Source: Candidatus Binatia bacterium (lineage in GTDB: Bacteria > Desulfobacterota > Binatia > UBA9968 > JAJDTQ01). From it: a stretch of DNA of 64,000 bases. Location of the stretch: contig OY762897.2 of assembly GCA_963666515.2 (NCBI GenBank), forward strand, positions 3,072,001-3,136,000, in the 5' to 3' direction. Below the pieces are notes generated by a model, which did not search any database, was not told the DNA's origin, and saw nothing but the letters and a program-made list of their open reading frames with translations. The stretch's first letter is position 1. Every line of letters begins with the position of its first letter. Of this stretch, positions 2,325-18,094 are shown piece after piece. The position numbers and the translations under genes were made by a program.

Positions 2325-2451
2325 CTGTCACGGGTAACAGGGTTCGCGGTGCATGGAAAGCGCGGCACCCGCGACCGTGCACGCGCAAATGGACGGGACG
2401 GCCGGTGTTTTGTTAGTTAGACTGTTGCAAACACGGCGACGACGCCTGCAA

Positions 2452-2480
2452 CCGTCATTCCGGCGGAAGCCGGAATCCAG
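2452..2480 (+). repeat. CGTC-type REP palindrome
   Basis: CCGTCATTCCGGCGGAAGCCGGAATCCAG; near-identical inverted copy at 20866-20894. Confidence 0.8.
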
Positions 2481-2502
2481 GCGGCAGGGAAAAGGAGAAA
2501 TC

Positions 2503-3414
2503 ATGCGCGTATTGATCACCGGCGCCGGACTTATCGGCTCCCACGTGGCCGCGGAACTGAGTTCACGCGGGGATGAGGTGACGTTCTTCGACGTGGTGGC
2601 CAAACCGGACTATGTCCGGCACGTCACCGGCAAGGACCTGCCGCTGATCCGCGGCGACATCTGCGACTTGGCGGCCCTGATGGACGCCTTTCTGACGGTG
2701 AGGCCCGATTGCGTCATCCACCTGGCCGCTTCCGTGGGCGAAAACAACATCCCCAACCTCTATACCGGCTTCCAGGTCAACCTGGTGGCTACCCTGAACG
2801 TCGCGGAAGCGGTGCGGCTCGCGGGCGTGCGGCGGCTGGTACACGCCAGCACCCAGGCGGTGTACCAGGACGCCGACCCTGGTGAGCTGCTGCGGGAAGA
2901 CTCGCCCCTGGACGGCCGCGGCCGGGTGTACAACGCCTCGAAGCTGGCCTGCGAGCACGTGCTCAGGACCTTCGCCGCCAGGCAGGCTTTCGAGCTGGTG
3001 ATGCTGCGCTTCGCCGGGGTGTACGGGTATCGGGCCGTGGCCGGCGGCCCGGGGGTGGCGGTGCAGGAGGCGGTCTGGGCCGCCATGGCCGGGGAAGATG
3101 CCGTGCTCAACGCCTACGAGACCGTGGACTTCGTCTATGTCAAGGACCTCGCCGACGGCATCGCCCGGGCCGTGCACACCGCGCCGCTGGCCCACGACAC
3201 CTACAACCTCGGCAGCGGCGCCCTCACCACCGTGGAGGATGTCGAGGCGGCGCTCCACGCCATCTTCCCGGACATCCGCCTGCGCCGGGGCACGCTCACG
3301 CCCAAGCGCCCGCAAATGGACATCACCCGGGCGCGGAACGAACTGGGATATGCGCCGGAGTACAAGCTGGAAGCGGGACTGCGCGACTACATCGCCGAAC
3401 TGAACCGCGAGTGA
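2503..3414 (+). CDS. NAD-dependent epimerase/dehydratase (extended SDR)
   Basis: [12 protein letters not shown] Rossmann motif, YNASK catalytic YxxxK, RBS AGGAG upstream of ATG 2503. Confidence 0.9.
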
Positions 3415-3565: not shown

Positions 3566-5245
3566 CTACGCCACACGCCTTGAGGCCGCGGCCTCCGTCA
3601 GCGTGGTGGTCGGCGACACGTACTCCAGGTCCGTCAGCACCTCGATGAGCGCGGGGCCGGGGGCGGCAAGGGCCTGCTCCAGCGCCGGCAGGAACTCGTC
3701 GTCGCGGGTGACCTTGAGCCCCAGGGCGCCGTAGCCGTTTCCCAGGGCGGCGAAGTCGGGATTGACCAGGTCGGTGCCGTAGTTCCTGCCGGGGTACTGG
3801 GCCTCCTGGTCCATGCGGATGGTGCCGTAGGAGCCGTTGGCGTACACCATCACGATGATCTTCACCCCGTACTGGCGCGCGGTGGCGATTTCCTGTCCGG
3901 TCATCAGGAAGCCGCCGTCGCCCACGTGGGCGATGACGGTCCGTTCCGGATGGGCCAGCCTGGCGGCCACCGCGCCGGGCACCCCCGTGCCCATGCTGCC
4001 CAGGTTGGGGACGATGTAGGAATCGGCGTGGTCGAATTCGAGGTAGCGCTGCACCCAGCCCCCGAAGCTCCCGGCGTCGTGGGTGTGGATGGTGTCCGGC
4101 GGTACGGTGGCCTTGATGTCCGCCATCACCCGCTCCATGGACACCGCGCCGGTGGGGCGCTCCGGTGGGGTGGCGTAGGCCCGTTGCCGGGCGTGATAGT
4201 CGGCGATCCAGGCGGCGCGAGCCTCGTTGGGGCCGGCGCCGTCGCGTTCCAGCGCCGCGGCCAGGGCCTTGCGCGGGTCGGCCAGCACGGCCATGTCCGG
4301 GCTGAAGTTCTGGCCGATGTTGCCGGCGTCGGCGTCGATCTGAATCGTCGCCAGTCCCGGATGGGGCAGCGTGTAGTTGCCGGACACCTGCTGGTTGAAC
4401 CGGCACCCGACGATCAGCAACAGGTCGGCGTCGTCGCGCACGATCTGCTTGGCGTGGTTGTTGCGGCTGCCGAGGTTGCCGACGTAGTGGGGATGGGTGT
4501 TGGGGAACACGTCCTGGCGCTTGAAGGCGCTCAGCACCGGCATCTGGAACTTCTCGGCAAAGGCCACCAACTCGTCCCGGGCGCGCGCGTATTGAGTGCC
4601 TGAGCCCGCCAGCAGCACCGGCCTTTCCGCCCGGTTCACGCGCTCCACCATTTCGCGGATCAGTTGCGGATCCGGACCCGGCCGGACCGCAGGATAAGGA
4701 CCCACCATGGCGATGTCCGCCTCTTCCTCCAGCATGTCCCGGGGCAGGGACACCACCACCGGACCCGGCCGTCCCGAGCGCGCCACATGGAACGCCCGCG
4801 CCATGATGCGGGGCGCCTCGCGCGGGTCGTTGATCTCGATGACCCACTTGGCGATGCTGCCGAAGAAATGGGTGTAGTCGATCTCCTGGCCGGCCTCCCG
4901 GCCGCGGTGCGACCGCGCCACTTGGCCGATGAGCAGGATCAACGGAGTCGAGTCGTACCTGGCAAGGTGCACCCCGATGCTGGCGTTGGTGGCGCCGGGA
5001 CCGCGCGTGACCATGCACACGCCCGGCGTGCGGGTGGTCTTGCCGTAGGCCTCAGCCATGAGGCAGGCGCTGCCCTCGTGGCGGTTGGTGATGAGGGTGA
5101 TCTCCGGGACGTCCCGCAACCCGTCCAGCAGGGCGATGTAGCTCTCCCCCGGCACGGAGAAGGCGTGACGCACCCCTTCGTTGCGCAGCGACCGCGCCAC
5201 CGCGTGGCCTCCCGACATCCTGCGGCTCTGCTGATCGACGCTCAC
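3566..5245 (-). CDS. Thiamine pyrophosphate-dependent enzyme (acetolactate synthase large subunit-like)
   Basis: VPGESY, RHEGSA, TRGPGATN, GRPGPV and TPP motif GDGGFLM...N. Confidence 0.9.
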   Translation of the reverse strand: MSVDQQSRRMSGGHAVARSLRNEGVRHAFSVPGESYIALLDGLRDVPEITLITNRHEGSACLMAEAYGKTTRTPGVCMVTRGPGATNASIGVHLARYDSTPLILLIGQVARSHRGREAGQEIDYTHFFGSIAKWVIEINDPREAPRIMARAFHVARSGRPGPVVVSLPRDMLEEEADIAMVGPYPAVRPGPDPQLIREMVERVNRAERPVLLAGSGTQYARARDELVAFAEKFQMPVLSAFKRQDVFPNTHPHYVGNLGSRNNHAKQIVRDDADLLLIVGCRFNQQVSGNYTLPHPGLATIQIDADAGNIGQNFSPDMAVLADPRKALAAALERDGAGPNEARAAWIADYHARQRAYATPPERPTGAVSMERVMADIKATVPPDTIHTHDAGSFGGWVQRYLEFDHADSYIVPNLGSMGTGVPGAVAARLAHPERTVIAHVGDGGFLMTGQEIATARQYGVKIIVMVYANGSYGTIRMDQEAQYPGRNYGTDLVNPDFAALGNGYGALGLKVTRDDEFLPALEQALAAPGPALIEVLTDLEYVSPTTTLTEAAASRRVA

Positions 5246-5305
5246 CGGTTCACCCCCGACCCTTCGCAGAGTTCATGGCCGTCCTCCTTGTCGTGTCGTC
5301 ACGCG

Positions 5306-5340
5306 TTGAATCCCCTAACGCATTTGTTGTCATGGGGCAA
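5306..5340 (-). promoter_or_regulatory. 35-bp conserved upstream element, copy 1
   Basis: TTGAATCCCCTAACGCATTTGTTGTCATGGGGCAA; 29/35 identical to 10888-10922; lies upstream of an RBS+ATG stub on the minus strand. Function inferred. Confidence 0.55.
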
Positions 5341-5427
5341 GGCGGGGTGGCTGAGACGGGCTTCCGTTGACTGTGGCGGTGTTTTCCAATATCAACAATC
5401 AAGTCCGTCCATATCAATTCGAACCCT

Positions 5428-7716
5428 ATGAACTCCGCCTTTCTGGACCGCTACATCGAGTTCACGTTGCGCCGGCGATGGCTGGTCCTGGCGTCGTCGG
5501 TGGCGGTGATGCTGGTCCTGACGGCCGGCCTCCAGTTCCTCGACATCTCCAACGACTGGCGCGACATGCTCGACGAGGACAATCCTCAACTCGTCGCATA
5601 CGACGCCCTGGAGGACACCTACACGGCCACCAATGCGGCGGTGATCGCGGTGGCGCCCAAGGGCGGGTCGGTATTCACCCGCGAGGCCCTCGGAGCCATC
5701 GAGGAGCTGACGGAGGCCGCGTGGGAGGTGCCCTTTTCCAGCCGGGTCGACTCCCTTGTCAACTACAACCACAGTGAGGCGGTCGAGGACGACCTGAACG
5801 TCGAACGGCTCGTGGACGACGCCGCATCGCTCAGCGATGAAGACCTCGCGCGGATCAAGAAGATCGCGTTGGGCGAGCCCAGCGTCGCCGGCCGTCTCGT
5901 CTCCCACGACGGGCGCGTTGCCGGACTGGTGATCAACTTTACCTTGCCCGAGCATTCGGACGCCGCGGAGATCGAGACCTACCACTATCTCCGCGGCCTC
6001 CTGGACAAGGCCCGGGCCGCCCACCCGGATATCGACTATCACGTGACCGGCAACGTCTTCGTGAACCAAGTCCTGACGGAGGCGGCCCAGGACGACATGG
6101 GAATTCTAGCGCCCGCCGCCTTCCTGGTCATCATCCTGGTCGGCGCCTTCCTGCTGCGCTCCCTGTCCGGCACACTGTGCATCGTCATTCTGCTCATCTT
6201 CGTGGTCGCGTCCACCATGGGCGTCATCGGCTGGGCCGGATTGCTGCTCAACGCCGCCAACTCCGGCATTCCCCTCATCATCATGACCCTGGCCATCTGC
6301 GACTCGGTCCACATCATCGGGACCATCAACTCCGGCATGGGCCGGGGTCTGGACCGGGACGCGGCGATTGCCGAATCGCTGCGGGACAACGCATGGCCCA
6401 TCTTCCTCACGACGGCCACGACGATGATCGGGTTCCTCAGCATGAACGCTTCGGACTCGCCGCCCTTTCGGATCCTCGGCAACCTGGTGGCGGTCGGCAT
6501 GCTGTTCGCCTACGTGTATTCCATGACGCTTCTGCCCGCGCTGCTGGCGGTGCTGCCGTTGCGCGGGCGCGCCGCGCGCGCCGGGGGTTCCGCCTTCTTC
6601 GACCGCCTCGGCGCCTTCGTGGTGGCGCGCCGCACGCTCCTGCTCTGGTCCGTGGCCGCAGTGGCGGTCGCCCTGGTGGCCGGCGTGCCCCGCGTCGAGC
6701 TGACGGACAACTGGACCACCCATCTGGACAAGCGTTACGAGTTCCGGCGCGACACCGACTTCGTCATCGAGAACCTGACCGGCGTGGAAACGCTGGAGTA
6801 CAGCCTGGACGCCGGGCGCGACGGCGGCATCACCGATCCCGACTATCTGCGCAAGGTCGACGCTTTCGCCGAATGGTACCGCGCCCAGCCGGAAGTGGCG
6901 CACGTCCAGGTGTTCTCGGACATCATGAAGCGCCTCAACAAGAACATGCACGGCGACGATCCGGCCTTCTACCGGGTGCCCGAAGACTCCCGGCTCGCCG
7001 CGCAGTACCTGCTGCTCTACGAGCTTTCGGTCCCCTTCGGCATGGACCTCAACAACCGCATCAACGTCGCCAAGTCGGCGACGCGCATGACCGTCACGCT
7101 CGCGAGGCTTAAGTCCGAGGAGCTGCGCGCGCTCGAAGTGCGCGGTCAGGACTGGCTCCGCGCCAACGCGCCCGACCTGGCGCGCGAGGCTTCGGGCTAC
7201 AGCCTCGTCTTCGCCCACCTGGCCATACGGAACACCCTGAGCATGTTGTGGGGCACGGTGACCGGCATGATCGTCATCTCGCTCATCCTCATCGGGATCT
7301 TCAGAAGCGTGCGCTTCGGCCTCATGAGCCTCGTGCCCAACCTCATCCCCTCGGCCATGGCCTTCGGCGTCTGGGGCTATCTGTACAGCGAGGTTGGGCC
7401 GGCCGGTTCCCTCGTCACCGCCATCGCCTTCGGCACCGTCGTCGACGACACGATCCACATCATGGCCAAGTACCTGAAGGCGCGTCGCGACGGCCTTCCC
7501 TCGCCCGAAGCGGTGCGCTACAGCTTCAATTCCGTAGGGGGCGCGTGCTTCACCACGACCATGATGCTGGTGCTGGGCTTCCTGGTATTCGCTACTTCGG
7601 GATTCGCCATCAGTTGGATGCTCGGCCTCCTGGTCGCGCTCACGCTCGGCTTCGCGCTGTTCCTCGATCTTCTGCTCCTGCCGCCCTTGCTGATGGCCAT
7701 CGACCGGAAGACCTGA
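5428..7716 (+). CDS. MMPL/RND-family lipid transporter (HpnN/BstA-like superfamily)
   Basis: Two repeats of TM + large periplasmic loop + 5 TM; TM4/TM10 motifs LAICDSVH and GTVVDDTIH. Confidence 0.9.
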   Translation: MNSAFLDRYIEFTLRRRWLVLASSVAVMLVLTAGLQFLDISNDWRDMLDEDNPQLVAYDALEDTYTATNAAVIAVAPKGGSVFTREALGAIEELTEAAWEVPFSSRVDSLVNYNHSEAVEDDLNVERLVDDAASLSDEDLARIKKIALGEPSVAGRLVSHDGRVAGLVINFTLPEHSDAAEIETYHYLRGLLDKARAAHPDIDYHVTGNVFVNQVLTEAAQDDMGILAPAAFLVIILVGAFLLRSLSGTLCIVILLIFVVASTMGVIGWAGLLLNAANSGIPLIIMTLAICDSVHIIGTINSGMGRGLDRDAAIAESLRDNAWPIFLTTATTMIGFLSMNASDSPPFRILGNLVAVGMLFAYVYSMTLLPALLAVLPLRGRAARAGGSAFFDRLGAFVVARRTLLLWSVAAVAVALVAGVPRVELTDNWTTHLDKRYEFRRDTDFVIENLTGVETLEYSLDAGRDGGITDPDYLRKVDAFAEWYRAQPEVAHVQVFSDIMKRLNKNMHGDDPAFYRVPEDSRLAAQYLLLYELSVPFGMDLNNRINVAKSATRMTVTLARLKSEELRALEVRGQDWLRANAPDLAREASGYSLVFAHLAIRNTLSMLWGTVTGMIVISLILIGIFRSVRFGLMSLVPNLIPSAMAFGVWGYLYSEVGPAGSLVTAIAFGTVVDDTIHIMAKYLKARRDGLPSPEAVRYSFNSVGGACFTTTMMLVLGFLVFATSGFAISWMLGLLVALTLGFALFLDLLLLPPLLMAIDRKT

Positions 7717-7809
7717 CTTCCCTTTCCCGACCCGTTGAAATGCAGTAGTCTTTAGGTAGTCGGCCCGAGTAGCCCCAAGCTACTTGCATGACGTACGGAG
7801 GTGAGGCTG

Positions 7810-9840
7810 ATGGCCCAATCGATGGCGCCCATGGCAAGTCCGCCGACGCTGACTTTGTCCGAAGAACTCATCCTGATGCTCCTGGACGAAGAGACCGGCT
7901 ACTTTCGCCAGGTGCCCGGGTGGAATCTGAACTGCGTGGTCGTCGGCGCCGTGCTTGCGGAACTCTCGCTCCGGTCCCGCATCGACACGGATCTGGAGTC
8001 CCTGACTCTTGAGGACCGGACGGAAACGGGGGACCCTGTCCTGGATTCCGTCCTGAAGGAAATCGCCGGCGAGCCGGAACGACGGAACGCGCGGTACTGG
8101 ATAGAACGGCTCGCTTCCCGCGCGGACGACATCATTGACCAACGTCTGGATCAACTGGTTGATCTGAAGATCCTCGTCCATCACCCCGGCGACTTCTGGA
8201 CGGTGTCTCCCACTGCCTGGCACGTGGGAGCGGACACCGGCTCCGGCGAAAGCACCGTCGTCGAGTACGTCAAGACGCGTATCAGCAGGATCATCTTCAG
8301 CAATGAGATCCCCGAGCCCTGGGACATCATCATCATCTGCCTGCTCGAGACCTGCGACATCACGCGCTTCATATTCCAACTGGATGACGAAACAGAGAAG
8401 CGTATCGAACTGATCTGCAAGATGGACCTGATCGGCCGGTCCATCGCCGATGCGGTCGCCGACAACATGGCCGGCCCGATGCTTCAGCGTCCCGCATTGA
8501 CCAAGACCATTCCGACCGTCCCCCTGCGTCACGTCATCTTCAGCCGTCACCTTCGCAGCGGCAACCTTCCGGCTCTCTTTGCCGAACTCGCAGAGAAGCA
8601 TGGTCCCGTATTCCGGATTCGCCCGCCGTTTGCGGAGCCCATGATCTTTCTGGCCGGACCACGGACAAATCGCTGGGCGCATCGGCACGGACGCATGTAC
8701 CTGAGAGCGAGGGACTACCTGGAGGACTTCGAGAAAGTCTACGGCGCTTCCGGAATACTGCCTGCGCTGGATGGCACGGATCATTTCCGATTTCGGAAAT
8801 CCATGCACCAGGCCTACTCTCGCGGGCGGCTGGCAGGGCGGCTGGATGATCTCTTCAGACACGGCCGAGCCCATATGGCAGGTTGGAAGGTGGGAGACTC
8901 ACTCCCCGCGGTGAAAATGACCCGGCGGTTGAGCAACGCTTCCATCTCTCCGCTCTTCAACAGTGTCGATTCGCAGGATCTTGTCGACGGCATGATCGAG
9001 TACAAGGAACGGGCGCTCTGCACTCACCTCATAAAAGTCCTGCCCAAGTTCATGCTTCATACCCCGGGGATGAAGCGCCGGGCGACCAACATCCAGGAGG
9101 TGCTGGACCGGGTCCAACGCATACATACACCCGCCCAGCGGGCCGGATGTCCTCGGGATTTCGCGGATGACCTGTTGAGCCTGCACAAGAGCGATCCGCA
9201 GTTTCTCCCGGAGTCGAATCTGCGTTTCGCCCTTTCGGCGCCGCTGATTGCCAGCATGTACGTGGGCGACATGCTTGGCTTCGCGTTCTACGCCATGGCG
9301 ACTCAGCCCGGGATGTACGAGAGAATCCGAAGCGAAGCCGATGCCGTCTTCGACAACGGCGACCCGGACAGCGACGCGTTCGACCCCTCCGTGATCGACG
9401 TCACCCGCCGATTCGTGATGGAGGTTGCGCGTCTTTACCCCATCGTCCCGGTGTCGGTTCGAACCGTGATGAATTCGTGCGTTGTCGAGGGCTACGAACT
9501 GCCGGAGGGATCACGGACCTTTATTGCCCAGTCGGCCGCGCACTACATGAGCGACGTCTTCCCCGAACCCTTTTCGTTCGACATCGACCGCTATCTTCCT
9601 TCGCGCAAGGAGCATGTCAATCCCGGATACGCCCCGTTCGGGGTGGGCACGCACACGTGCCTCGGACAAGCGTGGGTAGAACTGTTCATGGCTGCCCACG
9701 TGCTGCTTCTCGCGCATCACTTCACGATCAAGGTGCTTCCCGAGAACCACAGGCTCAAGATCGCCCCGTTCCCCTCGCTGTCTCTGAGCAAGAAGTTCAA
9801 GTTCCACGTCACCGAAAAGAGGCGCGAGATACCTGTCTGA
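7810..9840 (+). CDS. GPP34 (GOLPH3/Vps74-like) domain fused to cytochrome P450
   Basis: N-terminal about 220 aa LTLSEELILMLLDEETG..GAVLAELSLRSRI..TGDPVLD typical of GPP34; C-terminal P450 with EVAR (ExxR), FPEPFSFDIDRY and heme motif FGVGTHTCLG. GGAGG/GAGG RBS precedes ATG 7810. Confidence 0.85.
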   Translation: MAQSMAPMASPPTLTLSEELILMLLDEETGYFRQVPGWNLNCVVVGAVLAELSLRSRIDTDLESLTLEDRTETGDPVLDSVLKEIAGEPERRNARYWIERLASRADDIIDQRLDQLVDLKILVHHPGDFWTVSPTAWHVGADTGSGESTVVEYVKTRISRIIFSNEIPEPWDIIIICLLETCDITRFIFQLDDETEKRIELICKMDLIGRSIADAVADNMAGPMLQRPALTKTIPTVPLRHVIFSRHLRSGNLPALFAELAEKHGPVFRIRPPFAEPMIFLAGPRTNRWAHRHGRMYLRARDYLEDFEKVYGASGILPALDGTDHFRFRKSMHQAYSRGRLAGRLDDLFRHGRAHMAGWKVGDSLPAVKMTRRLSNASISPLFNSVDSQDLVDGMIEYKERALCTHLIKVLPKFMLHTPGMKRRATNIQEVLDRVQRIHTPAQRAGCPRDFADDLLSLHKSDPQFLPESNLRFALSAPLIASMYVGDMLGFAFYAMATQPGMYERIRSEADAVFDNGDPDSDAFDPSVIDVTRRFVMEVARLYPIVPVSVRTVMNSCVVEGYELPEGSRTFIAQSAAHYMSDVFPEPFSFDIDRYLPSRKEHVNPGYAPFGVGTHTCLGQAWVELFMAAHVLLLAHHFTIKVLPENHRLKIAPFPSLSLSKKFKFHVTEKRREIPV

Positions 9841-9845
9841 CGGTT

Positions 9846-10880
9846 CTAAAGTGGCTTGCGAGCCAGGAAGCAGTAGAGCGGCGTGAAGATGCCGGCTCGA
9901 CCGCCCGCGACGTAGGCGTCAGCGGTCCGATCCAGCAGCCGGACGACTTCCGTGGAGCCCTTGGGAAACAGCCGCAGCAATTCGGCCAGCTTCAGGCCCG
10001 CGATGAACGCCTTGCGACCCCAAGGAGTTCTGAGCAAGGTGTTGGCCAATTTCCCGTGCCGGCTCTCCATGGGCTGGTACCACGGCGTGGACGGCCCCTC
10101 CTTGACCTCCCTGTCCAACCCCTCGACGACGTGGAATCCCGCCGCTTCGAGGGCCTGATTCGTCGCCCTCATGGAACTGATGTCTTGCAGCGCAATGCCA
10201 CGCATGAGATCCCGCTTGATGGCCTGGTGCCGGCTGTCGTTCGGATCGAACTTGTCCGTCAGACACATGTCCTGCCCCCAGAACAGGGCTCCGGGTTTCA
10301 GGACGCGGAATATCTCCGCGAACGCACGTTGCTTGTCCGGTGCATGGCACGTTGACTCGATGGCATAGCCTCTGTCGAACGTGTCGTCTTCAATCACCGC
10401 CATGTCCATGAAACTGCAACGCACGTAGTCTACCTTGTGTTCAAGCCCTGCTTCGGCGTTCAGCGCTTTGGCCTTCTCCAACTGGATGGCACTGTTGTTG
10501 ATCCCCACAACCCGGACGCCGGACTCACGGACGACCCGGCGCATCGGGCCGCCGATCCCGCAGCCGACATCGATCACCGTCATGCTCTCCCGCAACTCCA
10601 GCTTGTCGATCATCAATCGCTGGTGCCGGACGATGGAATCCTCCACACTCTCCTGAGGCGTAAGGGGCGCGAAGTGCAAAGATTCGTTCCAACCCCACAC
10701 CATGAAATCGCTGCAAAGGTCGTAGTAGCCTCTTACCGTTTCGGTGTGATCGTACCCGCCAGCGCCGCCGTCCTTCGCCGTCGCCCGGTCGATCCAGCCG
10801 TCGAAGTCTCTCACGCGACGAGGGACGTCGGCCCCCCGGTACGCGTTCTTCAGCGCGTTCGATAATCTGGCGAGTTGCAT
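9846..10880 (-). CDS. Sterol 24-C-methyltransferase-like protein (SMT/ERG6 family)
   Basis: YYD..WGWNESLHFAP, SAM motif IDVGCGIGGP, YAIESTCHAP, C-terminal GGRAGIFTPLYCFLARKP. Start set at ATG 10880; the longer ORF extension overlaps the next gene. Confidence 0.88.
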   Translation of the reverse strand: MQLARLSNALKNAYRGADVPRRVRDFDGWIDRATAKDGGAGGYDHTETVRGYYDLCSDFMVWGWNESLHFAPLTPQESVEDSIVRHQRLMIDKLELRESMTVIDVGCGIGGPMRRVVRESGVRVVGINNSAIQLEKAKALNAEAGLEHKVDYVRCSFMDMAVIEDDTFDRGYAIESTCHAPDKQRAFAEIFRVLKPGALFWGQDMCLTDKFDPNDSRHQAIKRDLMRGIALQDISSMRATNQALEAAGFHVVEGLDREVKEGPSTPWYQPMESRHGKLANTLLRTPWGRKAFIAGLKLAELLRLFPKGSTEVVRLLDRTADAYVAGGRAGIFTPLYCFLARKPL

Positions 10881-10887
10881 GACGTGC

Positions 10888-10922
10888 TTGAACCCCCTAA
10901 CGCGTTTGTCGTCGCGGGACAA
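10888..10922 (-). promoter_or_regulatory. 35-bp conserved upstream element, copy 2 (directly 5' of the SMT start)
   Basis: TTGAACCCCCTAACGCGTTTGTCGTCGCGGGACAA; matches 5306-5340 with six transitions. Confidence 0.55.
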
Positions 10923-10984
10923 AGAGCCCGGCTGCCTGATCCGATGGTTCAACCATTGCGGGAGCATCCTGTACGGCCGGCGAT

Positions 10985-12034
10985 TCAGGAGGGCGTAGCG
11001 CCGCCGGTGTCGCACGGATCGGCATAGAACTGGGCGCAGTAGTGCCTGAAGGGCATGATCCTGCCGTCGGAAGCGCACAGGCGCGGGCGCGATCTATATT
11101 GCTTGCGGCTCCAGATGACCACGTCCTGCATGACGTCGCGCCGTTGCTGAGACGCCATGAACTTGTTCAACAGGGGGGCGCGCCATCGCACCGGCAGGAA
11201 CCCCAGGCCTGCGATCTTCCGCCGCGGCTTGCGTATCTCCCGTATCTGCGAGACCAGTGACAGGTCGATCAGCGTGCCGTCCACCGGGGTCGCCAGCACC
11301 CACAGGCGCGCGTCCATGCCGATGGAGTGCTCACGGATTTCCACGAACGAGTAGCCGAGCCCGAAGACGTGGGCGATGACCGACGTGTCGAAGCTGAGGG
11401 TTGTGACCCTGGCGATGGTTCGCTTCGTCTTGAAGTCGAAACGACTCTCGAGGAAGGGACCGTCCACGGACACTTCCCTGACGGGATTCACGTCATGGTA
11501 GCCGTGGACGTGGCGCAGGTGAGCGAAATCGACCGAATTCTCGGTCGTCTCCTGGGGATGGCCGGGAAAGCGCAGGGTCGTGATCTCGAAGCCGCTCCAA
11601 CCGGCCTGATCCGGCAGCTCCGGGGGCAGGCTCCATTGCGGCTCCCGCCCCCGGAGCCCCCACCAGGCGAAGATCAGGCCGAGAACTTCCCGCGTCGCGA
11701 AGACTCGTAATCTGGCGCTCTTGGGGGGAGGGGCAAAGGGCGTGGCGACGCACTGGCCGGTGGCGTCGAATTCGTAGCCATGGAAAGGGCAGATCAGCCG
11801 GCCGTCGCGGATGCGCCCACCGGCGGATGGCCCAAGATCGGAACCCAGGTGAGGGCAAACCGATTCGGCGACGCAGACGCGCCCGTCCCCGTCACACCAG
11901 ACGACGACGTTCTCGCCCATCCACGTCTTTTGGATGAGTCCGGCCTTTTTCAGCACGGCCTGGCGGGTTGCGACGAAGTACCACCCCTCGGGAAATGGGG
12001 AAGGCAAGGGGGCGTTCGTGGCCGACGTCCTCAT
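10985..12034 (-). CDS. Rieske [2Fe-2S] non-heme iron oxygenase/desaturase, Neverland/DAF-36/KshA-like
   Basis: CPHLG...CPFHG Rieske ligands, ENSVDFAHLRHVH iron motif, C-terminal DVVIWSRKQY..P.L...DG.I..FR...QFY typical of sterol-acting Rieske enzymes. Confidence 0.85.
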   Translation of the reverse strand: MRTSATNAPLPSPFPEGWYFVATRQAVLKKAGLIQKTWMGENVVVWCDGDGRVCVAESVCPHLGSDLGPSAGGRIRDGRLICPFHGYEFDATGQCVATPFAPPPKSARLRVFATREVLGLIFAWWGLRGREPQWSLPPELPDQAGWSGFEITTLRFPGHPQETTENSVDFAHLRHVHGYHDVNPVREVSVDGPFLESRFDFKTKRTIARVTTLSFDTSVIAHVFGLGYSFVEIREHSIGMDARLWVLATPVDGTLIDLSLVSQIREIRKPRRKIAGLGFLPVRWRAPLLNKFMASQQRRDVMQDVVIWSRKQYRSRPRLCASDGRIMPFRHYCAQFYADPCDTGGATPS

Positions 12035-12123
12035 TTGAGTCAATTTGTACCACTGTCGCGCCCGCTGTGCTAGATTGATAGCAAGATTGATAACGAAAGT
12101 TCGCCTGATCGAAGGGAAGGAAC

Positions 12124-12807
12124 ATGCCCGACGGAGTCGAACAGCTCAACGAGGACATCATCGCGGCGGCCAGGATTCTGAGCCGTGAGGGACTAGTGCA
12201 GGGTTTCGGCCACGTGAGCGCGCGGATCCCGGACTCGGACCTGTTCGTGATCACGCCGCGGGTCGCCCTGGAGCTGGTGGAGCCCGGGCAGTTGGTGGTG
12301 ATGAACCTGCAGGGTCAGGTGCTGGAAGCGCCGGCGCCGCCATCCTTCGAGACCGCGCTGCACACGGCCATCTTCAACGCCCGGCGGGACGTGAACGCCA
12401 TCACGCGGATCCACGCCAGGACCGCCAACATCTTCTCGGTGACGGACACGTCCCTGGACGCGGTGCACAACCACGGCAGCTTCTTCAGCGGCGGGGTGCC
12501 GGTCTTCAGGACCATCGACCTCATTTCCACCCGGGAACTGGGCGAGGGCGCGGCCGCGGCGCTGGGCGATGCGGCCGCGGTGCTGTTGCAGGGAAACGGT
12601 CAGGTAACGGTGGGGAGGACCATACCGGAAGCGGTGATGATGGCCATCTACCTGGAGGAAGCGGCGCAGGTGCTCTATGGCGCCATGCAGGTGGGCACGC
12701 CGCGCTTCCTTCCCCCGGAAGCGGCAGGCTCCCGGCAGAAGGAGGCCCTTCCGCCTCCGGACATGGAACGCGCCTGGAACTTCTTCAAGAGCCGGGTGGG
12801 GATGTGA
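12124..12807 (+). CDS. Class II aldolase/adducin family protein
   Basis: GHVSAR, ETALHTAIFNARRDVNAI..IH, LLQGNG. Confidence 0.85.
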   Translation: MPDGVEQLNEDIIAAARILSREGLVQGFGHVSARIPDSDLFVITPRVALELVEPGQLVVMNLQGQVLEAPAPPSFETALHTAIFNARRDVNAITRIHARTANIFSVTDTSLDAVHNHGSFFSGGVPVFRTIDLISTRELGEGAAAALGDAAAVLLQGNGQVTVGRTIPEAVMMAIYLEEAAQVLYGAMQVGTPRFLPPEAAGSRQKEALPPPDMERAWNFFKSRVGM

Positions 12808-12811
12808 AGGA

Positions 12812-13519
12812 TCAGCCCGCGAACTCGACGTCGAGCTTGGCGGTCTCCCCGGCCTTGACCTCCACTTCCTTGGTCTGCGTGCCGAGCTTCTCGTGCCAGA
12901 TCTGGACGTTGTACTTGCCGGCGGGCAGGTCGGTGAGGCTGAAGGCGCCGTCCTCGCCGGTGATGCTGTAGTAGGGGTTGCCGGCCACGAAGATCCAGCC
13001 GCCCATCCAGCCGTGGACGTCGCACTTGACTTCCATGATCTCGGGCTTGTCGAACTTCACCTTCAGCTTCTTCTTGAACTTGGGCTGCGCCCGGTTCATG
13101 GGCTTGTTGATCTTGCTGTAGGTGTGGATGTTGTGCAGCACCTTGTCCGGGTTGAGGATGGTGAGGTCGGCGCCGGCCGGAACCGCCAGGACGTGCGGGG
13201 CATACCGGCAACCGTTCTGGTCGAGGGTGACCCCCTTCTTCTCCAGCTTCTTGCCGCCCTTGACCTCGGCGATGTACACGATCACGTTCGCCAGCTTGCC
13301 GTCCTTGACCACCAGCGACTCGTCGTACTTGGGCGACTGGTCACAGCGTTTCTTGTCCTTGGTGACCTTGAGCTTCTTCGGTTTCGGGGCGGTGCCCTTG
13401 AAGAGCGCGACGCCGGAGATGCCTCCGCCCGCGGCGATCGCGGGCTGGTAAGCGCCGGCGGTCAGAGCAACAGTCACGAAAAGCGCCAGAACGGCGAGCA
13501 ACGGAAACCTGCGGTTCAT
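12812..13519 (-). CDS. Exported cupredoxin-like protein with carboxypeptidase-regulatory-like domain
   Basis: Signal peptide, DQNGCRYAPHV, HNIH and CDVHGWM (possible type-1 Cu ligands), C-terminal G.F.L.DLPAG.Y.V..WHE. Confidence 0.7.
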   Translation of the reverse strand: MNRRFPLLAVLALFVTVALTAGAYQPAIAAGGGISGVALFKGTAPKPKKLKVTKDKKRCDQSPKYDESLVVKDGKLANVIVYIAEVKGGKKLEKKGVTLDQNGCRYAPHVLAVPAGADLTILNPDKVLHNIHTYSKINKPMNRAQPKFKKKLKVKFDKPEIMEVKCDVHGWMGGWIFVAGNPYYSITGEDGAFSLTDLPAGKYNVQIWHEKLGTQTKEVEVKAGETAKLDVEFAG

Positions 13520-13557
13520 ATCATTCTCTCCTGTTCCGAATATTTTCTTGTTCCAGG

Positions 13558-16287
13558 TTAGCCCTGTTTGTCGGCTTCCTCAACACCTGTTCCGCCCGAT
13601 TCCGTCGCCGTCTCGCCTCCTGCCTTGGCCGTGGCCGCGGGCTTCAATCCAAGCGTCATGATGTAGTCGGTCAGCGCCTCGATCTGCTTCTTTTCGTCCC
13701 CGCCCAGGATGTCCTCGGGTCCACCGGGGTAGAATGACGGCATCTTGGTTCCCGGCTGGAGCGTCTGGGGGTCGAGTATCCACTTCTCGATCCAGTCCGG
13801 ATTGAGGCGCTGGCGGGCGAGGTTCAGATCCGGCGCCCAATCTTCCACCGGCCCTTCGGGCTTCTTGTCGCCCCGCACGTGGCAACTGCCGCACTCGAAG
13901 TAGTCGTCGGAGAACAACGTCCGACCGGCCTCCAGGTAGCCCGCTGGCACCTGTCCTTCGTCAACATGGACATAGGGGATCTCGATCCCGGAAAGGCCCG
14001 CGAAGTAATTCACGAAGGTATCCGCGTGGGGCCCGTCGAAGCCGAAGGTGGGCATGCGGATCTTGAGCCAGGGCCGGATGGCGTTTTCGGGGTTCTGCAG
14101 GAAGCCGAACAGCCAGTTGGCCTGGACCTTCTCGCCCTGGCCGTTGAGCGGCGGCGGCGCCAGGGTCGGGTTTTTCTCGTAGTACTTGCGGACGTACCCG
14201 CCCGTCCCGTCAATCTCGTGACAACCGACGCAGTTGTACTCCTGCACCTTGCGGCGTCCCGCGGAGATCTGCCGCGCCCGCTTGGAGTGATCGGCCTTGA
14301 AGGCCTCGGGCACCTTCCGCTCCACGAAACCGTGCAGCAGCACCCGTAGCGCCTTGATGTCTTCCTCGGGCAGGTCGAAGTGAGGCATCAACTGCTCCAC
14401 CCGCTCGGTGGCGTACACCCTCGGGCTGTGTATCTTGTTGAAGGTCCAGTCCTTCCAGGTGTGCTTGATGCTGGTGTCGTTGCCGAAGAACAGTTCCTCC
14501 AGGGGCTTCGAGCCGAAGGTGGTCAACTCGACGCCGATGCGGGACTCCTTCTCCATCCCCGGGATGTCGTGGCAGCCGGCGCAGCCGTACTTGCGCACCA
14601 GCTTCTCGCCCCTGGCGACGTTGGCGGGCTCCTCCAGGCGGGCCACCACATCGGCGTCGGGCTCGGGCTTCGTGCCCAGCGTCATCAGGTAGGCGGTCAG
14701 CGCCCGCGCCTCGTCCTCGGACAGCCGCAGGCTCGGCATGCGGGTGCCGGGATTGTAGCTCTTGGGATCCAGCAGCCAGTTGTAGGTCCAGCGGGGGTTC
14801 ACCTTGGCGGCGATGTCCTTCAGGTTCGGCACCAGGTCCTTGCCGGCGATGCGGGTGGTGAACTCGTCCTCGGCGAAGCCGTGGCAGCCCAGGCAACCTA
14901 CCGATCGGGCCAGCTCCTCGCCCTTCTTCACCATGGCCGTGTCGCCCGACCGGTACCCCTCCGGCGCGGGATGTTGCTTGAGCCAGGCATCGGCTTCCTT
15001 CCTGGAGACCGACCACAGGTACGCCGCCGCGGCCAGCGCCTCGTCTTCCTTGAAATAGAAGTGCGGCATGCGGGTATTGGGCCTGAACTCCCGCGGGTCC
15101 TCGATCCATTTCACCATCCACGCGGGGTCCAGCTTGGCCTGGACCTTGCGCAGGCTCGGCCCGACCTTGGGGATGTCGCCGTAGCCTTCCACCAGGTGAC
15201 AGCCGGTGCACCCCACCTGCTCGAAGATCTGCTGCCCCCGCGCCACCACCTGGGCGCCTTCGAGGCCGGCCACGTTGAGATGGCAGGTGACACAGTTGGC
15301 CTGCACGTCGTTGTCCTCCAGCAACGGGTGCTCCCAGAACTTCACGTTGCCGTGGGCCTGGGCCAGGCTGTTGACCGCCTCTCCCTGTCCTTCGTGACAA
15401 ACGGTGCAGCCGAAAACGCGCGGCGGATGGGCGGTGTCGCTCAAAAACGTCAGGCGTTTGGGATGGGTGGTAAGGGGCTGCGGCAGGTCGTCGAAGCCGG
15501 CGCGGTTGATGGCGATATGGCACGACTGGCAGCGGTCCACCCGTTCCACCTGCTGGTCGAAGTTGTTGCGGTCGAAGTCCTTGAGCACCACCTGCTGGAT
15601 GCTGGGGATCTTGTAGAGGGTGAACTGCGGGAAGCCGTCCGGGCCTACCGTGACGGTGGCGTTGTCCATCTGCCGCTGCCACTTGCGCTTGTCGCCCTCC
15701 AGCGCATAGAGCTGATCGTCGATCTTCTTGACGCCGCCCTGGACCTCCCTGATCTCCGCCTTGACGTCGGCGCGCTTCTTGCGCGCGGCGTCCAGGGCCG
15801 GCTCGAGGGCGCGTTGCTGGGCCTGCAGCTCTTGGATGTGCCTGCGGTAAGGGCCCGCGTCCTCGCCCAACTGGACCGCGTGGTCGAACTCGTACCAGGC
15901 CTCGTCCAGCTCGCTCTTGACGAACTTGACCTCCTGGTCCGCGTCGAAGTACTCGACCTCGACCCGCTGCTGAAGCTCCCTGAGTTCCGCGAGCCGTGCG
16001 CCCTTCTCGCCGCTCTCGAGGCTCTCCACCTCCGCGGCCCGTTGCTTTACCAGTTCCGCGTACTTCGGGTCCGCGTTCAGGCGCTCCTGCTCCTTGGCCA
16101 ACGCAGCCGCGGCGCGCTCGTAGTCCGTGCGGACGAACTCCGACTGGTGCACCTTCCACACCCGCCTGGTGATGTTGTCGTCGAACACCGCCCACAGGGA
16201 CACCACCACCAGCAGGATGGAGCCTACGAAAAAGACCGTCCCGTAGGACTTCTTCTCTTCATTGGGATCTACGCCGCGAACCGCCAT
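13558..16287 (-). CDS. Membrane-anchored octaheme c-type cytochrome of a Rieske/cyt b complex
   Basis: Eight CxxCH motifs (CQSCH, CTVCH, CVTCH, CTGCH, CLGCH, CAGCH, CVGCH, CGSCH), N-terminal TM followed by a coiled coil, repeated T(R/K)MP axial Met motifs. Confidence 0.9.
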   Translation of the reverse strand: MAVRGVDPNEEKKSYGTVFFVGSILLVVVSLWAVFDDNITRRVWKVHQSEFVRTDYERAAAALAKEQERLNADPKYAELVKQRAAEVESLESGEKGARLAELRELQQRVEVEYFDADQEVKFVKSELDEAWYEFDHAVQLGEDAGPYRRHIQELQAQQRALEPALDAARKKRADVKAEIREVQGGVKKIDDQLYALEGDKRKWQRQMDNATVTVGPDGFPQFTLYKIPSIQQVVLKDFDRNNFDQQVERVDRCQSCHIAINRAGFDDLPQPLTTHPKRLTFLSDTAHPPRVFGCTVCHEGQGEAVNSLAQAHGNVKFWEHPLLEDNDVQANCVTCHLNVAGLEGAQVVARGQQIFEQVGCTGCHLVEGYGDIPKVGPSLRKVQAKLDPAWMVKWIEDPREFRPNTRMPHFYFKEDEALAAAAYLWSVSRKEADAWLKQHPAPEGYRSGDTAMVKKGEELARSVGCLGCHGFAEDEFTTRIAGKDLVPNLKDIAAKVNPRWTYNWLLDPKSYNPGTRMPSLRLSEDEARALTAYLMTLGTKPEPDADVVARLEEPANVARGEKLVRKYGCAGCHDIPGMEKESRIGVELTTFGSKPLEELFFGNDTSIKHTWKDWTFNKIHSPRVYATERVEQLMPHFDLPEEDIKALRVLLHGFVERKVPEAFKADHSKRARQISAGRRKVQEYNCVGCHEIDGTGGYVRKYYEKNPTLAPPPLNGQGEKVQANWLFGFLQNPENAIRPWLKIRMPTFGFDGPHADTFVNYFAGLSGIEIPYVHVDEGQVPAGYLEAGRTLFSDDYFECGSCHVRGDKKPEGPVEDWAPDLNLARQRLNPDWIEKWILDPQTLQPGTKMPSFYPGGPEDILGGDEKKQIEALTDYIMTLGLKPAATAKAGGETATESGGTGVEEADKQG

Positions 16288-16331
16288 TCACTCTCCCTGA
16301 AGCACGCAGAGAATCTATCCGTATCTCGGCG

Positions 16332-16499
16332 TCAAGCCGCCTTGCTCTCCAACACGCGCCCAAGCCAGAACACCGTCACGCCGATGAGGGTCATGATGAT
16401 CTCTTCGGCCATGGCGATGCCCTGAAAGATGCCCACGAACAACGTGAAACCCACACCGGCAAGGCCCAGGGCCTGGACAAGCTTTGCTACATAGAACAT
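16332..16499 (-). CDS. 55-aa two-TM small membrane protein in the bc operon
   Basis: Manual translation MFYVAKLVQALGLAGVGFTLFVGIFQGIAMAEEIIMTLIGVTVFWLGRVLESKAA; ATG overlaps the upstream stop (TGATG coupling); below ORF-track cutoff. Confidence 0.75.
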   Translation of the reverse strand: MFYVAKLVQALGLAGVGFTLFVGIFQGIAMAEEIIMTLIGVTVFWLGRVLESKAA

Positions 16500-17269: not shown

Positions 17270-17315
17270 GCGATGGCACCCTTTCCCTTAGCGATGAACC
17301 CGTGCGCCGATGAAC

Positions 17316-18086: not shown

Positions 18087-18094
18087 GGTCCGTC

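Follow-up and report, generated by a model that had tools for sequence, protein, structure and literature searches.

Why would a bacterial cytochrome P450 carry at its N-terminus a GPP34 domain, the fold of eukaryotic GOLPH3 and Vps74? The question is raised by one gene in the window (the whole 64,000-nucleotide stretch of DNA that was analysed; features in Table 1), whose fusion a preliminary description had singled out. The fusion is already in print, and another function has been put forward for it: in Microbiome 13:4 (PMC11706023), Ferreira et al. (2025) reported it under the name GPP34_L, counted 656 examples among sponge symbionts and suggested that it is a secreted effector which binds PI4P. 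The window protein, which has its GPP34 and P450 domains in one polypeptide, is another member of GPP34_L and shows no architectural difference from that family. The architecture is the same in one ORF of about 675 aa, the homologs of the window protein are 62-69% identical, and their MAGs are of the same kinds, including Acidimicrobiia, Dehalococcoidia and Nitrospira 'SB' bins. Because the fusion has been published, the finding as first stated adds no new object, and the preliminary statement that such domains mostly occur alone in bacteria has to be qualified, as 656 of the 1381 GPP34 proteins of sponge symbionts are fusions (PMC11706023). According to the same paper, the GPP34 family is enriched in sponge symbionts, the fusion is exclusive to them and expressed in situ, stand-alone GPP34 genes (GPP34_S) occur beside P450 genes, and GPP34-Rieske fusions occur rarely. 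The main text and text supplement of PMC11706023 mention neither sterols nor MMPL, and in the literature on GPP34, P450, sponge symbionts and KshA/steroids no paper was found that ties the fusion to sterol metabolism. The explanation that we find best, at somewhat less than an even chance, is that the protein is a cytoplasmic oxidase of externally acquired sterol-like lipids in which GPP34 serves as a targeting or adaptor module independent of PI4P.

Table 1. Features of the fusion locus, with positions in the window
Feature	Positions	Strand	Details
MMPL/RND-type transporter with sterol-sensing-domain signature	5428..7716	+	762 aa; 93 nt upstream of the fusion ATG, same strand
Shine-Dalgarno GGAGG	7797..7801	+	8 nt ahead of ATG 7810; sequence reading
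GPP34-P450 fusion gene, GPP34_L member	7810..9840	+	676 aa plus stop, from the likely start; ORF listing, Pfam, homologs
GPP34 (GOLPH3/Vps74-fold) domain	7843..8481	+	aa 12-224; predicted β-hairpin aa 122-132; net charge -20
Interdomain linker	8482..8514	+	aa 225-235; aa 223-229 below pLDDT 50
Cytochrome P450 domain	8515..9837	+	aa 236-676; ExxR E538/R541; heme cysteine C617 (nt 9658-9660)
Sterol C-24 methyltransferase-like gene	9846..11078	-	convergent with the fusion, stop codons 5 nt apart
KshA-type Rieske oxygenase	10985..12043	-	352 aa; upstream of the methyltransferase, same strand

In the ORF listing the fusion occupies a single open frame on the forward strand, 7801..9840 (679 aa, GTG start). 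Translation likely starts at the ATG at 7810, because GGAGG, a strong Shine-Dalgarno sequence, stands 8 nt before it and the closest homologs are also 676 aa long. The N-terminus of about 220 aa that had been called GPP34-like, in frame with a full P450, was borne out by Pfam and by the uninterrupted ORF, the span 7810-8480 being aa 1-224 and thus the GPP34 domain. Both profiles proposed for checking it matched above their cut-offs: PF05719 (GPP34) covered aa 19-220 of the 679-aa form and profile positions 1-199 of 201 (E 1.7e-28, 100.5 bits, cut-off 29.1), and PF00067 (p450) gave E 6.9e-35 and 121.1 bits against a cut-off of 22.8. A scan of the fusion and its neighbours against NCBIfam returned none at a curated cut-off. 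The objection that the fusion might be an assembly artefact is answered by its homologs: since both Pfam domains were present in 120 of 120 homologs among the matches listed and a full-length fusion ORF was present in 69 of 71 related loci, the fusion is genuine. These 71 loci came from MAGs of Dehalococcoidia, Acidimicrobiia, Gemmatimonadota and Acidobacteriota; the MAGs of named relatives included Ca. Poriferisocius, Ca. Spongiisocius and 'SB', 'APA' and 'IRC' bins. Versions with a doubled GPP34 domain were also seen, with two GPP34 domains plus a P450 in P0138 and tandem GPP34 in P0132. The genome of the window holds a second, short GPP34 gene (L075), whose neighbours are a DDE transposase, a STAS-domain ORF and a UbiD-like gene, with no P450.

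P450 catalysis requires heme, NAD(P)H and redox partners. Judged from its intact motifs the P450 domain is catalytically complete: ExxR (E538, R541) and the heme-thiolate pocket FGxGxHxCxG (FGVGTHTCLG, C617) were invariant in 50 of 50 aligned family members. The acid-alcohol pair of the I-helix has the canonical form A/G-G-x-D/E-T; in the family, with the motif placed by eye, G486-D487 was conserved and the next residue was A, G, M or Q in 47 of 50. The P450 model superposed on CYP184A1, CYP51 and BM3 with a target-normalised TM of about 0.8 (Foldseek), its closest structural matches including BM3 and the heme domain of a CYP51-ferredoxin fusion, and the solved relatives found by PDB sequence search included taxadiene hydroxylase, CYP51 and CYP120. 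Identity as a CYP51 was rejected, as the best PDB CYP51 match spanned only aa 457-651 at 62 bits, structural identity was 18-19%, and there was no NCBIfam assignment. P450 BM3, the Methylococcus CYP51-ferredoxin fusion and TM-anchored microsomal P450s likewise join a P450 to an extra N- or C-terminal module, but the module of the window protein has the GOLPH3 fold instead of being a redox partner or a TM helix, and showed no cofactor motif.

Structure prediction of the GPP34 domain alone, the check proposed in the preliminary description, returned the GOLPH3/Vps74 fold, in which a β3/β4 hairpin projects from a helical core. The AF2 model (pLDDT 89.0, pTM 0.85) has strands at 122-125 and 129-132, and all eight Foldseek matches at E <= 0.001 were GOLPH3/Vps74 chains (best 9qpq_B, TM 0.72/0.70), the next match having E 0.55. 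In the PDB search, a profile of 43 bacterial GPP34 domains matched human GOLPH3 (1.4e-19) and yeast Vps74 (9.3e-18). The domain is thus like GOLPH3/Vps74 (PDB 3KN1, 9QPQ, 2ZIH) in fold, profile match and β-hairpin. It differs from GOLPH3 in being shorter, without the insertion before helix α6 in the alignment, in its strong acidity, and in its fusion to an enzyme in a bacterium, which has no Golgi. The PI4P pocket also differs. In GOLPH3 it consists of W81, R90, R171 and R174 in human numbering (Wood et al. 2009, PMC2806290), and the β-hairpin of GOLPH3/Vps74 is needed for both PI4P binding and oligomerisation (PMC2806290). By a profile alignment at about 16% identity, the equivalents of R90, R171 and R174 in the fusion protein are V45, D106 and I109. 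Across the fusion family these positions hold V/I/A/T, E/D/G and I/V, each being basic in 0 of 50 members, and the R90 position was basic in none of 43 more diverse bacterial GPP34 domains. W38 was kept in 49 of 50 members, its equivalence to GOLPH3 W81 differing between two alignments. The median net charge of the GPP34 domain is -20 (family range -25 to -14), that of the P450 domain +10. A pocket without basic residues in an acidic domain speaks against a PI4P-like or electrostatic attachment to anionic membranes, and on these residues the GPP34 domain most likely does not bind PI4P.

These observations bear directly on the proposal of Ferreira et al. 2025 (PMC11706023) that the proteins are secreted effectors which attach to the host's PI4P on the phagosome and keep the phagosome from maturing, the symbiont escaping digestion. 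The domain is genuinely homologous to GOLPH3/Vps74, a PI4P effector of eukaryotes, and the enrichment, exclusivity and in situ expression reported in that paper are in keeping with such a role. So is its distribution in the order to which the window belongs, where 23 of the 24 genomes examined from one genus had the GPP34 domain, against 0 of the 16 from other families, as expected of a lifestyle-linked acquired trait. The loss of all three basic pocket residues in 50 of 50 members, with an R90 position never basic in the 43 diverse domains, and the net charge of about -20 speak against it; the N-terminus, inspected by eye and hydropathy only, has no signal-like or TM-like segment; and the fused partner is an intact P450, dependent on heme, NAD(P)H and bacterial redox partners. 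The relevant sections of the paper contain no secretion or binding data. We consider the secreted effector very unlikely.

A role at the membrane would not need PI4P. The domain might, in the form of the idea that the preliminary description put first, be a direct peripheral-membrane anchor that uses its hairpin and another headgroup to hold the P450 on the cytoplasmic face with no protein partner. A hairpin of the GOLPH3/Vps74 type is predicted at aa 122-132, and aromatic residues in its region are conserved (F129 in 49, W130 in 43 and W137 in 47 of 50 members). The P450 would be expected to act on membrane lipids, and its closest solved relatives include membrane-anchored eukaryotic P450s. 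However, a charge of -20 and the lack of a basic pocket are ill-suited to the anionic bacterial membrane, the hairpin tip is polar (H-H-D/P-G-D in the family alignment), and lipid binding by the domain is putative. Direct anchoring is rather unlikely in our estimate.

The opposite charges of the two domains, -20 and +10, would also fit a domain that has no targeting role and acts within the enzyme, as an oligomerisation module, as a lipid- or substrate-handling domain, or as a regulator of the P450, for example through contacts with the basic surface of the P450. Split forms are reported to occur naturally, GPP34_S lying beside a P450 gene (PMC11706023); these forms, the double-GPP34 versions P0138 and P0132, the Vps74 tetramer and the dimer/tetramer interface at the hairpin of Vps74/GOLPH3 (PMC2806290) point in the same direction. 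Complex prediction of the two domains, GPP34 (aa 12-224) and P450 (aa 236-676), from separate alignments gave a score of 0.01 and a mark of 0.32 and counts neither way. The interdomain interface is putative, the linker is partly of low confidence, and a role confined to the enzyme leaves the recurrent adjacency of SSD-MMPL genes unexplained. We give such a role a small chance of being correct.

This adjacency begins with the gene upstream of the fusion. The transporter matched MMPL (PF03176, 7.7e-33), Patched SSD (32.5 bits, cut-off 23) and Sterol-sensing (30.3 bits, cut-off 22.3) in Pfam, and its NCBIfam relatives, HAE3 and HpnN-like, were all under their cut-offs. It is probably co-transcribed with the fusion. 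No promoter-like or terminator-like site was seen in the gap between the two genes, and a scan of 5200-12300 gave nothing above shuffle expectation. Three distinct MMPL subfamilies were found beside fusion genes. The window-type MMPL, 92-94% identical, adjoined the cassette in each of the 5 syntenic loci from the same genus; a paralog of 46-47% identity lay beside a paralogous fusion (47-50%) in 2 further loci; and a third subfamily, 25-28% identical over aligned membrane segments, was within 10 kb in 33 of the 71 loci of other phyla, in 22 of them with a gap of <=300 bp. The SSD-MMPL genes of other phyla were detected only through clustering of all ORFs in the 71 loci; tblastn of the window's neighbours against these loci gave no match to the window-type MMPL or to the aldolase, TPP enzyme, epimerase and MFS genes. 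The preliminary description had suggested that GPP34, putatively replacing a TM anchor, would dock the P450 on membranes or on the MMPL transporter to give access to lipid substrates. The reality of the fusion and of its fold, the lipid- and sterol-type neighbours and the recurrence of SSD-MMPL, in unrelated versions, beside fusion genes lend docking partial support, whereas a basic pocket found in 0 of 50 members and the net charge of -20 weigh against its PI4P-like or electrostatic form. Because the pocket is missing and the domain acidic, protein-protein docking is the more plausible form of the idea.

The genes on the other side of the fusion point to the kind of substrate. The methyltransferase matched Sterol_MT_C (63.2 bits, cut-off 21.7) and Methyltransf_11 in Pfam and is the sole copy in the genome; its translation probably begins further downstream than the GTG of the ORF listing, because its homologs are about 347 aa long (median) and the ORF counted from that GTG extends into the end of the Rieske gene. 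The Rieske gene is KshA-type by its domains, Rieske (PF00355, 59.9 bits) and KshA_C (PF19298, 84.2 bits), both over the cut-off, and its protein has KshA as best PDB match (3.3e-21), ahead by 8 orders of magnitude; 9α-hydroxylase activity is putative. Identity of the Rieske gene as SdmA was rejected, its sole NCBIfam match scoring 37.4 bits where the cut-off is 600. Neither the methyltransferase nor the FAD enzyme of related loci had a steroid-specific relative in PDB sequence searches. The single KshA_C gene and the single Sterol_MT_C gene of the 4.67 Mb genome both lie within 2.2 kb of the fusion.

This association was seen both within the genus and far outside it. In the window's own genus, KshA_C was present in 10 of 11 genomes with a fusion ortholog of 64-67% identity, each time within about 1.2 kb of the fusion, and in 1 of 13 genomes without the ortholog, these kin not being independent of one another. 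All 16 genomes examined from the order's other families lacked both genes. Within 10 kb of the fusion in the 71 related loci, a KshA-type Rieske gene was found in 53, SSD-MMPL in 33 and a sterol methyltransferase (SMT) in 15; at least one of the three was present in 62 loci and none in 9. Where an SMT was carried it often adjoined the fusion directly (gap <=300 bp in 10 of 13 loci carrying one). It was missing from most loci, those of Acidimicrobiia, where the commonest direct neighbour was an FAD enzyme that has LkcE, from lankacidin biosynthesis, as its closest solved relative and is not a steroid marker. This LkcE-like enzyme, a BVMO-like enzyme and an SDR were common among the fusion's neighbours. 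The genes conserved around the fusion encode lipid oxygenases, a methyltransferase and a transporter of the inner membrane and are not secretion genes, which is a further point against a secreted effector.

Could the cassette act on something other than a sterol? The 'sterol' labels might reflect family-level similarity only, the substrate being a hopanoid, another terpenoid or a polyketide-like product. No neighbour reached an NCBIfam equivalog cut-off, the best named NCBIfam relatives of the MMPL are HAE3 and the hopanoid transporter HpnN, the LkcE-like, BVMO-like and SDR genes are frequent neighbours, and 13 of 50 fusion-bearing genomes have a high-scoring cyclase match. Yet Sterol_MT_C marks sterol side-chain methyltransferases specifically and a gene of this kind directly adjoins the fusion in the 10 of 13 loci mentioned, the Rieske protein is closer to KshA than to any other solved protein by the margin given above, no PKS, NRPS or terpene-synthase family was found among the scanned recurrent neighbour clusters, and the window's own genome lacks any cyclase. 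A non-sterol substrate is in our view quite unlikely.

The cyclase content of the genomes bears on where the substrate originates. The genome of the window, 98.35% complete, gave 0 matches to squalene/oxidosqualene cyclase (PF13243), and the substrate is therefore most likely supplied from outside. Of 50 other fusion-bearing genomes 30 had no cyclase and 20 had one, so that outside supply is not general. The 13 high-scoring matches (425 to 450 bits, open frames of 643 to 942 aa) are presumably squalene-hopene cyclases.

The bacterial sterol clusters of SMT, CYP51 (ERG11) and SdmA/SdmB (Brown et al. 2023, PMC10070321) come from sponge symbionts, as the cassette of the window presumably does, and likewise have an SMT by a Rieske oxygenase and a P450. 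Those clusters hold true orthologs (ERG11 of about 31% identity, E ~1e-69; SdmA 44-47%), often with an oxidosqualene cyclase (PMC10070321), whereas in the window the Rieske protein scores 37 bits against the SdmA cut-off of 600, the P450 is CYP51-like at family level only, and the genome has no cyclase. Sponge MAGs also have their own KshA clade, cluster IV (Holert et al. 2018, PMC5790920). Steroid catabolism in Actinobacteria and Proteobacteria (KshA/KshB) shares with the window a KshA-type Rieske protein and a P450 acting, in the window putatively, on a host-derived steroid. The SMT of the window, in contrast, is anabolic, and its P450 is of another class than the small soluble bacterial P450s and carries GPP34. 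Among bacterial P450s, CYP125 has a role in steroid catabolism.

Taken with this evidence, the favoured reading of an oxidase of externally acquired sterol-like lipids would work as follows. The fusion would be a cytoplasmic two-domain enzyme in which a GOLPH3/Vps74-fold domain and a heme-thiolate P450 are joined by a short flexible linker. It would form part of a cassette that moves horizontally and transforms polycyclic lipids resembling sterols or steroids. The cassette's other members would be the KshA-type Rieske oxygenase, the SSD-MMPL/RND transporter and, in some lineages including this one, the sterol side-chain methyltransferase. The substrate would come from outside, plausibly from the sponge host or the host's food, and would be handled by the adjoining transporter. 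GOLPH3 is an adaptor that binds the membrane and the tails of membrane enzymes. By analogy, we infer that GPP34 may be a targeting or adaptor module which holds the otherwise soluble, basic P450 at a membrane partner. The prime candidate for that partner would be the adjoining SSD transporter, in the way that GOLPH3 binds membrane-protein tails.

The evidence departs from the sole published idea, that of a secreted PI4P effector, in the lost pocket, the acidic domain, the intact P450, the steroid-type neighbours and the often cyclase-free genomes. If the favoured reading is true, GPP34_L would mark a pathway of host-sterol transformation in sponge symbionts, bacterial GPP34 domains would gain a first concrete role, as enzyme adaptors, and a new candidate route would enter the debate on the bacterial share in the side-chain-alkylated sterol biomarkers of sponges. 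A wider picture, which we offer as a speculation of low probability, is that the GOLPH3 fold is an ancient adaptor of lipid-modifying enzymes to membrane machinery, and that sponge symbionts of many phyla share a mobile cassette of GPP34-P450, KshA-type oxygenase, SSD-RND transporter and sometimes C-24 sterol methyltransferase, with which bacteria that make no sterols import and remodel those of the host. Were this so, unusual sponge sterols and fossil steranes would derive in part from cyclase-free bacteria overlooked by surveys keyed to oxidosqualene cyclase.

The single open frame that holds the whole fusion is preceded by a Shine-Dalgarno sequence, and because this GGAGG lies 8 nt before the ATG at 7810, the gene most likely starts there and would encode a product equal in length to its closest database homologs. 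Residues of the fusion are numbered from this start. The preliminary description of a GPP34-like N-terminus in one frame with a full P450 was confirmed, both Pfam domains scoring above their cut-offs. Both domains were present in all 120 homologs listed (64-98% identity to the fusion), and an uninterrupted full-length fusion frame was found in 69 of 71 related loci, which ruled out an assembly artefact. The object itself is already known. Besides Pfam GPP34 and p450, the protein belongs to GPP34_L, a family in which 656 of 663 long GPP34 proteins are GPP34+P450 and which has been reported from sponge symbionts alone, in many phyla; the authors also describe P450 genes near stand-alone GPP34 genes and, rarely, fusions of GPP34 to Rieske or PotA (Ferreira et al. 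2025, Microbiome 13:4, PMC11706023). Two full GPP34-P450 genes stood side by side, as tandem paralogs, in 9 of the 71 loci (L008, L012, L016, L021, L037, L044, L045, L047, L062).

Coordinates of the fusion, its neighbours and related features (window positions unless a locus is named)
Feature	Position	Strand	Details
Epimerase/3beta-HSD-like gene, NAD-dependent	2353-3414	+	weak NCBIfam matches: HpnA 54 bits, SdmB 29 bits
MMPL/RND transporter	5428..7716	+	Patched and sterol-sensing-domain (SSD) signatures; directly upstream of fusion
Shine-Dalgarno GGAGG	7797-7801		sequence read
Open frame of fusion	7801..9840	+	ORF listing of window
Fusion gene, most likely extent	7810..9840	+	676 aa
GPP34 domain, PF05719	7810-8480	+	fusion N-terminus; 100.5 bits vs cut-off 29.1, profile positions 1-199 of 201
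Cytochrome P450, PF00067		+	downstream of GPP34 in fusion; 121.1 bits vs cut-off 22.8
I-helix segment	9253-9282		aa 482-491; motif placed by eye
Methyltransferase with Sterol_MT_C			convergent with fusion; 63.2 bits vs cut-off 21.7
Rieske oxygenase with KshA C-terminal domain			upstream of methyltransferase, convergent with fusion; Pfam
Respiratory cluster	12812-18619	-	235-aa cupredoxin-like/CarboxypepD_reg, 909-aa multihaem cytochrome c, split cytochrome b (323 + 256 aa), Rieske iron-sulfur protein
Stand-alone GPP34 gene, same genome	L075 9647-10300 = G000:C1:730688-731284	-	217 aa, 155 bits
Overlapping Rieske and GPP34 genes, Ca. Palauibacter MAG	L064 2779-6004		349-aa GPP34 protein; 14-nt overlap

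A GPP34-domain search of 1.84 billion representatives gave 1574 matches at E <= 0.001, and among the 45 long proteins examined, 27 were GPP34+P450 (domain identity 33-57%), including one of 872 aa (P0138) with two GPP34 domains ahead of one P450. Another 16 showed GPP34 alone, many looking truncated; the set also held one tandem GPP34 protein lacking a P450 (P0132) and one STAS+GPP34 protein of 358 aa (P0250). Next to the second, stand-alone GPP34 gene of the genome lie a DDE transposase, a UbiD-like gene and an ORF whose C-terminal part is a STAS domain. Since STAS occurs both fused to GPP34 and next to it, the two domains may be functionally linked.

The fusion was recurrently linked to steroid-type oxygenases, sterol methyltransferase and SSD transporters. 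The 71 loci came from named MAGs of Dehalococcoidia, Acidimicrobiia (including Ca. Poriferisocius, Spongiisocius and Aldehydirespirator), Longimicrobiales, Palauibacter and Vicinamibacteria. Within 10 kb of the fusion, a KshA-type Rieske homolog was found in 53/71, an FAD oxidoreductase with LkcE as best solved relative in 38/71, a second, small P450 in 35/71, an SDR in 21/71, a BVMO-like flavoenzyme in 17/71 and a sterol methyltransferase in 15/71. An SSD-MMPL from another subfamily (828 aa; only 25-28% identity to the window's MMPL over membrane segments) was present in 33/71, in 22 of these with a gap of at most 300 bp, and the window-type MMPL in 0/71. At least one of Rieske, SSD-MMPL and methyltransferase occurred in 62 loci; of the nine with none, four were short. 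In the Palauibacter MAG, a DDE transposase gene directly follows the overlapping KshA-type Rieske and GPP34 genes; these may be a Rieske gene coupled to a GPP34 gene, or else the remains of a GPP34-P450 gene that an insertion element cut short.

In the window's own 4.67-Mb genome, the Sterol_MT_C and KshA_C genes are each the sole copy of their kind. The best solved relative of the Rieske oxygenase was KshA (3.3e-21; next family 7e-13), and a KshA clade exclusive to sponge MAGs has already been noted (Holert et al. 2018, PMC5790920). SdmA was rejected as its identity (NCBIfam, 37 bits against a cut-off of 600). In the sterol-biosynthesis clusters described by Brown et al. 2023 (PMC10070321), true orthologs of ERG11 and sdmA are present, often together with a cyclase, which sets them apart from the cluster here. 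A search for squalene/oxidosqualene cyclase (PF13243) gave no match in the window's genome, which is 98.35% complete, and therefore the substrate, if a sterol, must be supplied from outside the cell. Among 50 other fusion-bearing genomes, 20 had a cyclase-family gene and 30 had none. In five (G041, G045, G046, G047, G049) the match lay inside frames of 1116-1166 aa, as in the fused squalene monooxygenase/oxidosqualene cyclase genes of the same study (PMC10070321); in 13 others it scored higher (425 to 450 bits; frame 643 to 942 aa, mostly 643 to 723) and may be squalene-hopene cyclase.

Comparison within the genus separated the cassette from its flanks. Same-genus loci (L081-L085) were syntenic and matched the window at 83-96% identity in their flanks (TPP enzyme, MMPL, aldolase, cytochromes); across 5428-12807 identity was 90-96% for the TPP enzyme, MMPL and aldolase and 83-92% for the genes of the cupredoxin-like protein and the multihaem cytochrome. 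The respiratory cluster just past the cassette was 83-92% conserved. Between these flanks the FAD enzyme, methyltransferase, Rieske and fusion genes varied in order and content, and identity was as low as 63-68% for the fusion, a level similar to that with homologs of other phyla, with 83-84% for the Rieske and 75-80% for the methyltransferase. GC3 was 0.77-0.83 in three genes of the locus, lower than in flanking genes (about 0.9). From these identities, the cassette genes look to have been replaced at a fixed site by recombination or horizontal transfer. The epimerase/3beta-HSD-like gene probably lies outside the cassette, since the genus keeps it as a flank (87-93%) but a search of the 71 loci of other phyla did not find it. 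Of the 11 genus genomes that carry a 64-67% fusion ortholog, 10 had KshA_C, always at most about 1.2 kb from it, against 1 of 13 genomes lacking such an ortholog; these counts are not a statistical test because the genomes are kin. Neither gene was present in any of the 16 genomes from other families in the order.

The MMPL was adjacent in 5/5 syntenic same-genus loci, and a sequence scan found no promoter-like or terminator-like site in the MMPL-fusion gap of the window. Two further loci had a 47-50% paralogous fusion beside a 46-47% MMPL paralog, and two with 32-37% fusions had no MMPL at the thresholds used. Because the window type, this paralog and the 828-aa subfamily each adjoin fusions, three different SSD-MMPL lineages stand beside GPP34-P450 genes.

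The P450 part looks catalytically complete, with ExxR (E538/R541) and the pocket FGxGxHxCxG with C617 invariant in 50/50 aligned family members. The full-length model (pLDDT 79.9, pTM 0.74) superposed on CYP184A1, the Methylococcus CYP51 heme domain and P450 BM3 with a target-normalised TM of about 0.8; CYP51 was rejected as the identity of this P450. Most P450s have a conserved threonine directly after the acidic I-helix residue, but with the motif placed by eye, G486-D487 was followed by A/G/M/Q in at least 47/50 members, a hint that oxygen may be activated in an unusual way or that the substrate assists catalysis.

The GPP34 domain kept the fold of its eukaryotic relatives but not their phosphoinositide pocket. 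A profile built on 43 GPP34 domains from bacteria matched human GOLPH3 (1.4e-19) and yeast Vps74 (9.3e-18), so that on sequence grounds the homology is solid. When the domain was modelled with AlphaFold2 (pLDDT 89.0, pTM 0.85), all eight Foldseek matches at E <= 0.001 were GOLPH3 or Vps74 chains (best TM 0.72/0.70; ninth match E 0.55), and the assignment to GPP34 held in both the full-length PF05719 match and the fold. The PI4P pocket of human GOLPH3 consists of W81, R90, R171 and R174, and binding is lost in the W81A/R90A and R171A/R174A double mutants and upon deletion of the hairpin (Wood et al. 2009, PMC2806290). In a profile alignment at about 16% identity, R90, R171 and R174 corresponded to V45, D106 and I109 of the fusion; 50 family members had V/I/A/T, E/D/G and I/V there, basic residues occurring in 0/50 at each, and the R90 position was never basic in the 43 more diverse domains. 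The pocket tryptophan may be retained as W38, kept in 49/50 members, its register against W81 differing between two alignments. The predicted hairpin (aa 122-132) was conserved, with H125 and G127 invariant and aromatics F129, W130 and W137. The 213-residue domain is very acidic, with a net charge of -20 (median in the family -20, range -25 to -14; pI about 4.4), and the P450 domain is basic (+10; family median +4). The PI4P pocket is lost; since its basic residues were looked for and are replaced, the domain does not match GOLPH3 in function as regards this pocket. The earlier idea that the domain docks the P450 was thus weakened as PI4P-like membrane binding, and gained partial support, from the recurrent SSD-MMPL adjacency, as docking on the transporter.

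Published work proposes that GPP34 is secreted as an effector, binding PI4P of the host and blocking the maturation of phagosomes, and GPP34 expression was seen in Aplysina aerophoba metatranscriptomes (PMC11706023). The words "sterol" and "MMPL" are absent from the main text and one text supplement of that paper, and our literature search found no paper tying sterol metabolism to the fusion. Inspection by eye and by hydropathy showed no segment in the fusion that resembles a TM helix or a signal peptide, the best hydropathy window being a core helix of the GOLPH3 fold. We tentatively favor, at less than even confidence, a cytoplasmic enzyme: the P450 would act in the cytoplasm of the bacterium on a sterol-like lipid acquired by the cell, and the GPP34 domain would be a targeting or adaptor module that takes the P450, via protein-protein contact, to a partner in the membrane, for which the SSD transporter is the most plausible candidate. 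Such a role would resemble that of GOLPH3, which binds the tails of membrane enzymes. As to the chemistry, the methyltransferase argues for tailoring of sterols, and the KshA type and the BVMO, SDR and CoA-transferase neighbours argue for a catabolic route. The cytoplasmic enzyme offers a testable alternative to the secreted-effector hypothesis for GPP34_L, and may link this family to the transformation of host sterols by bacteria without a cyclase.
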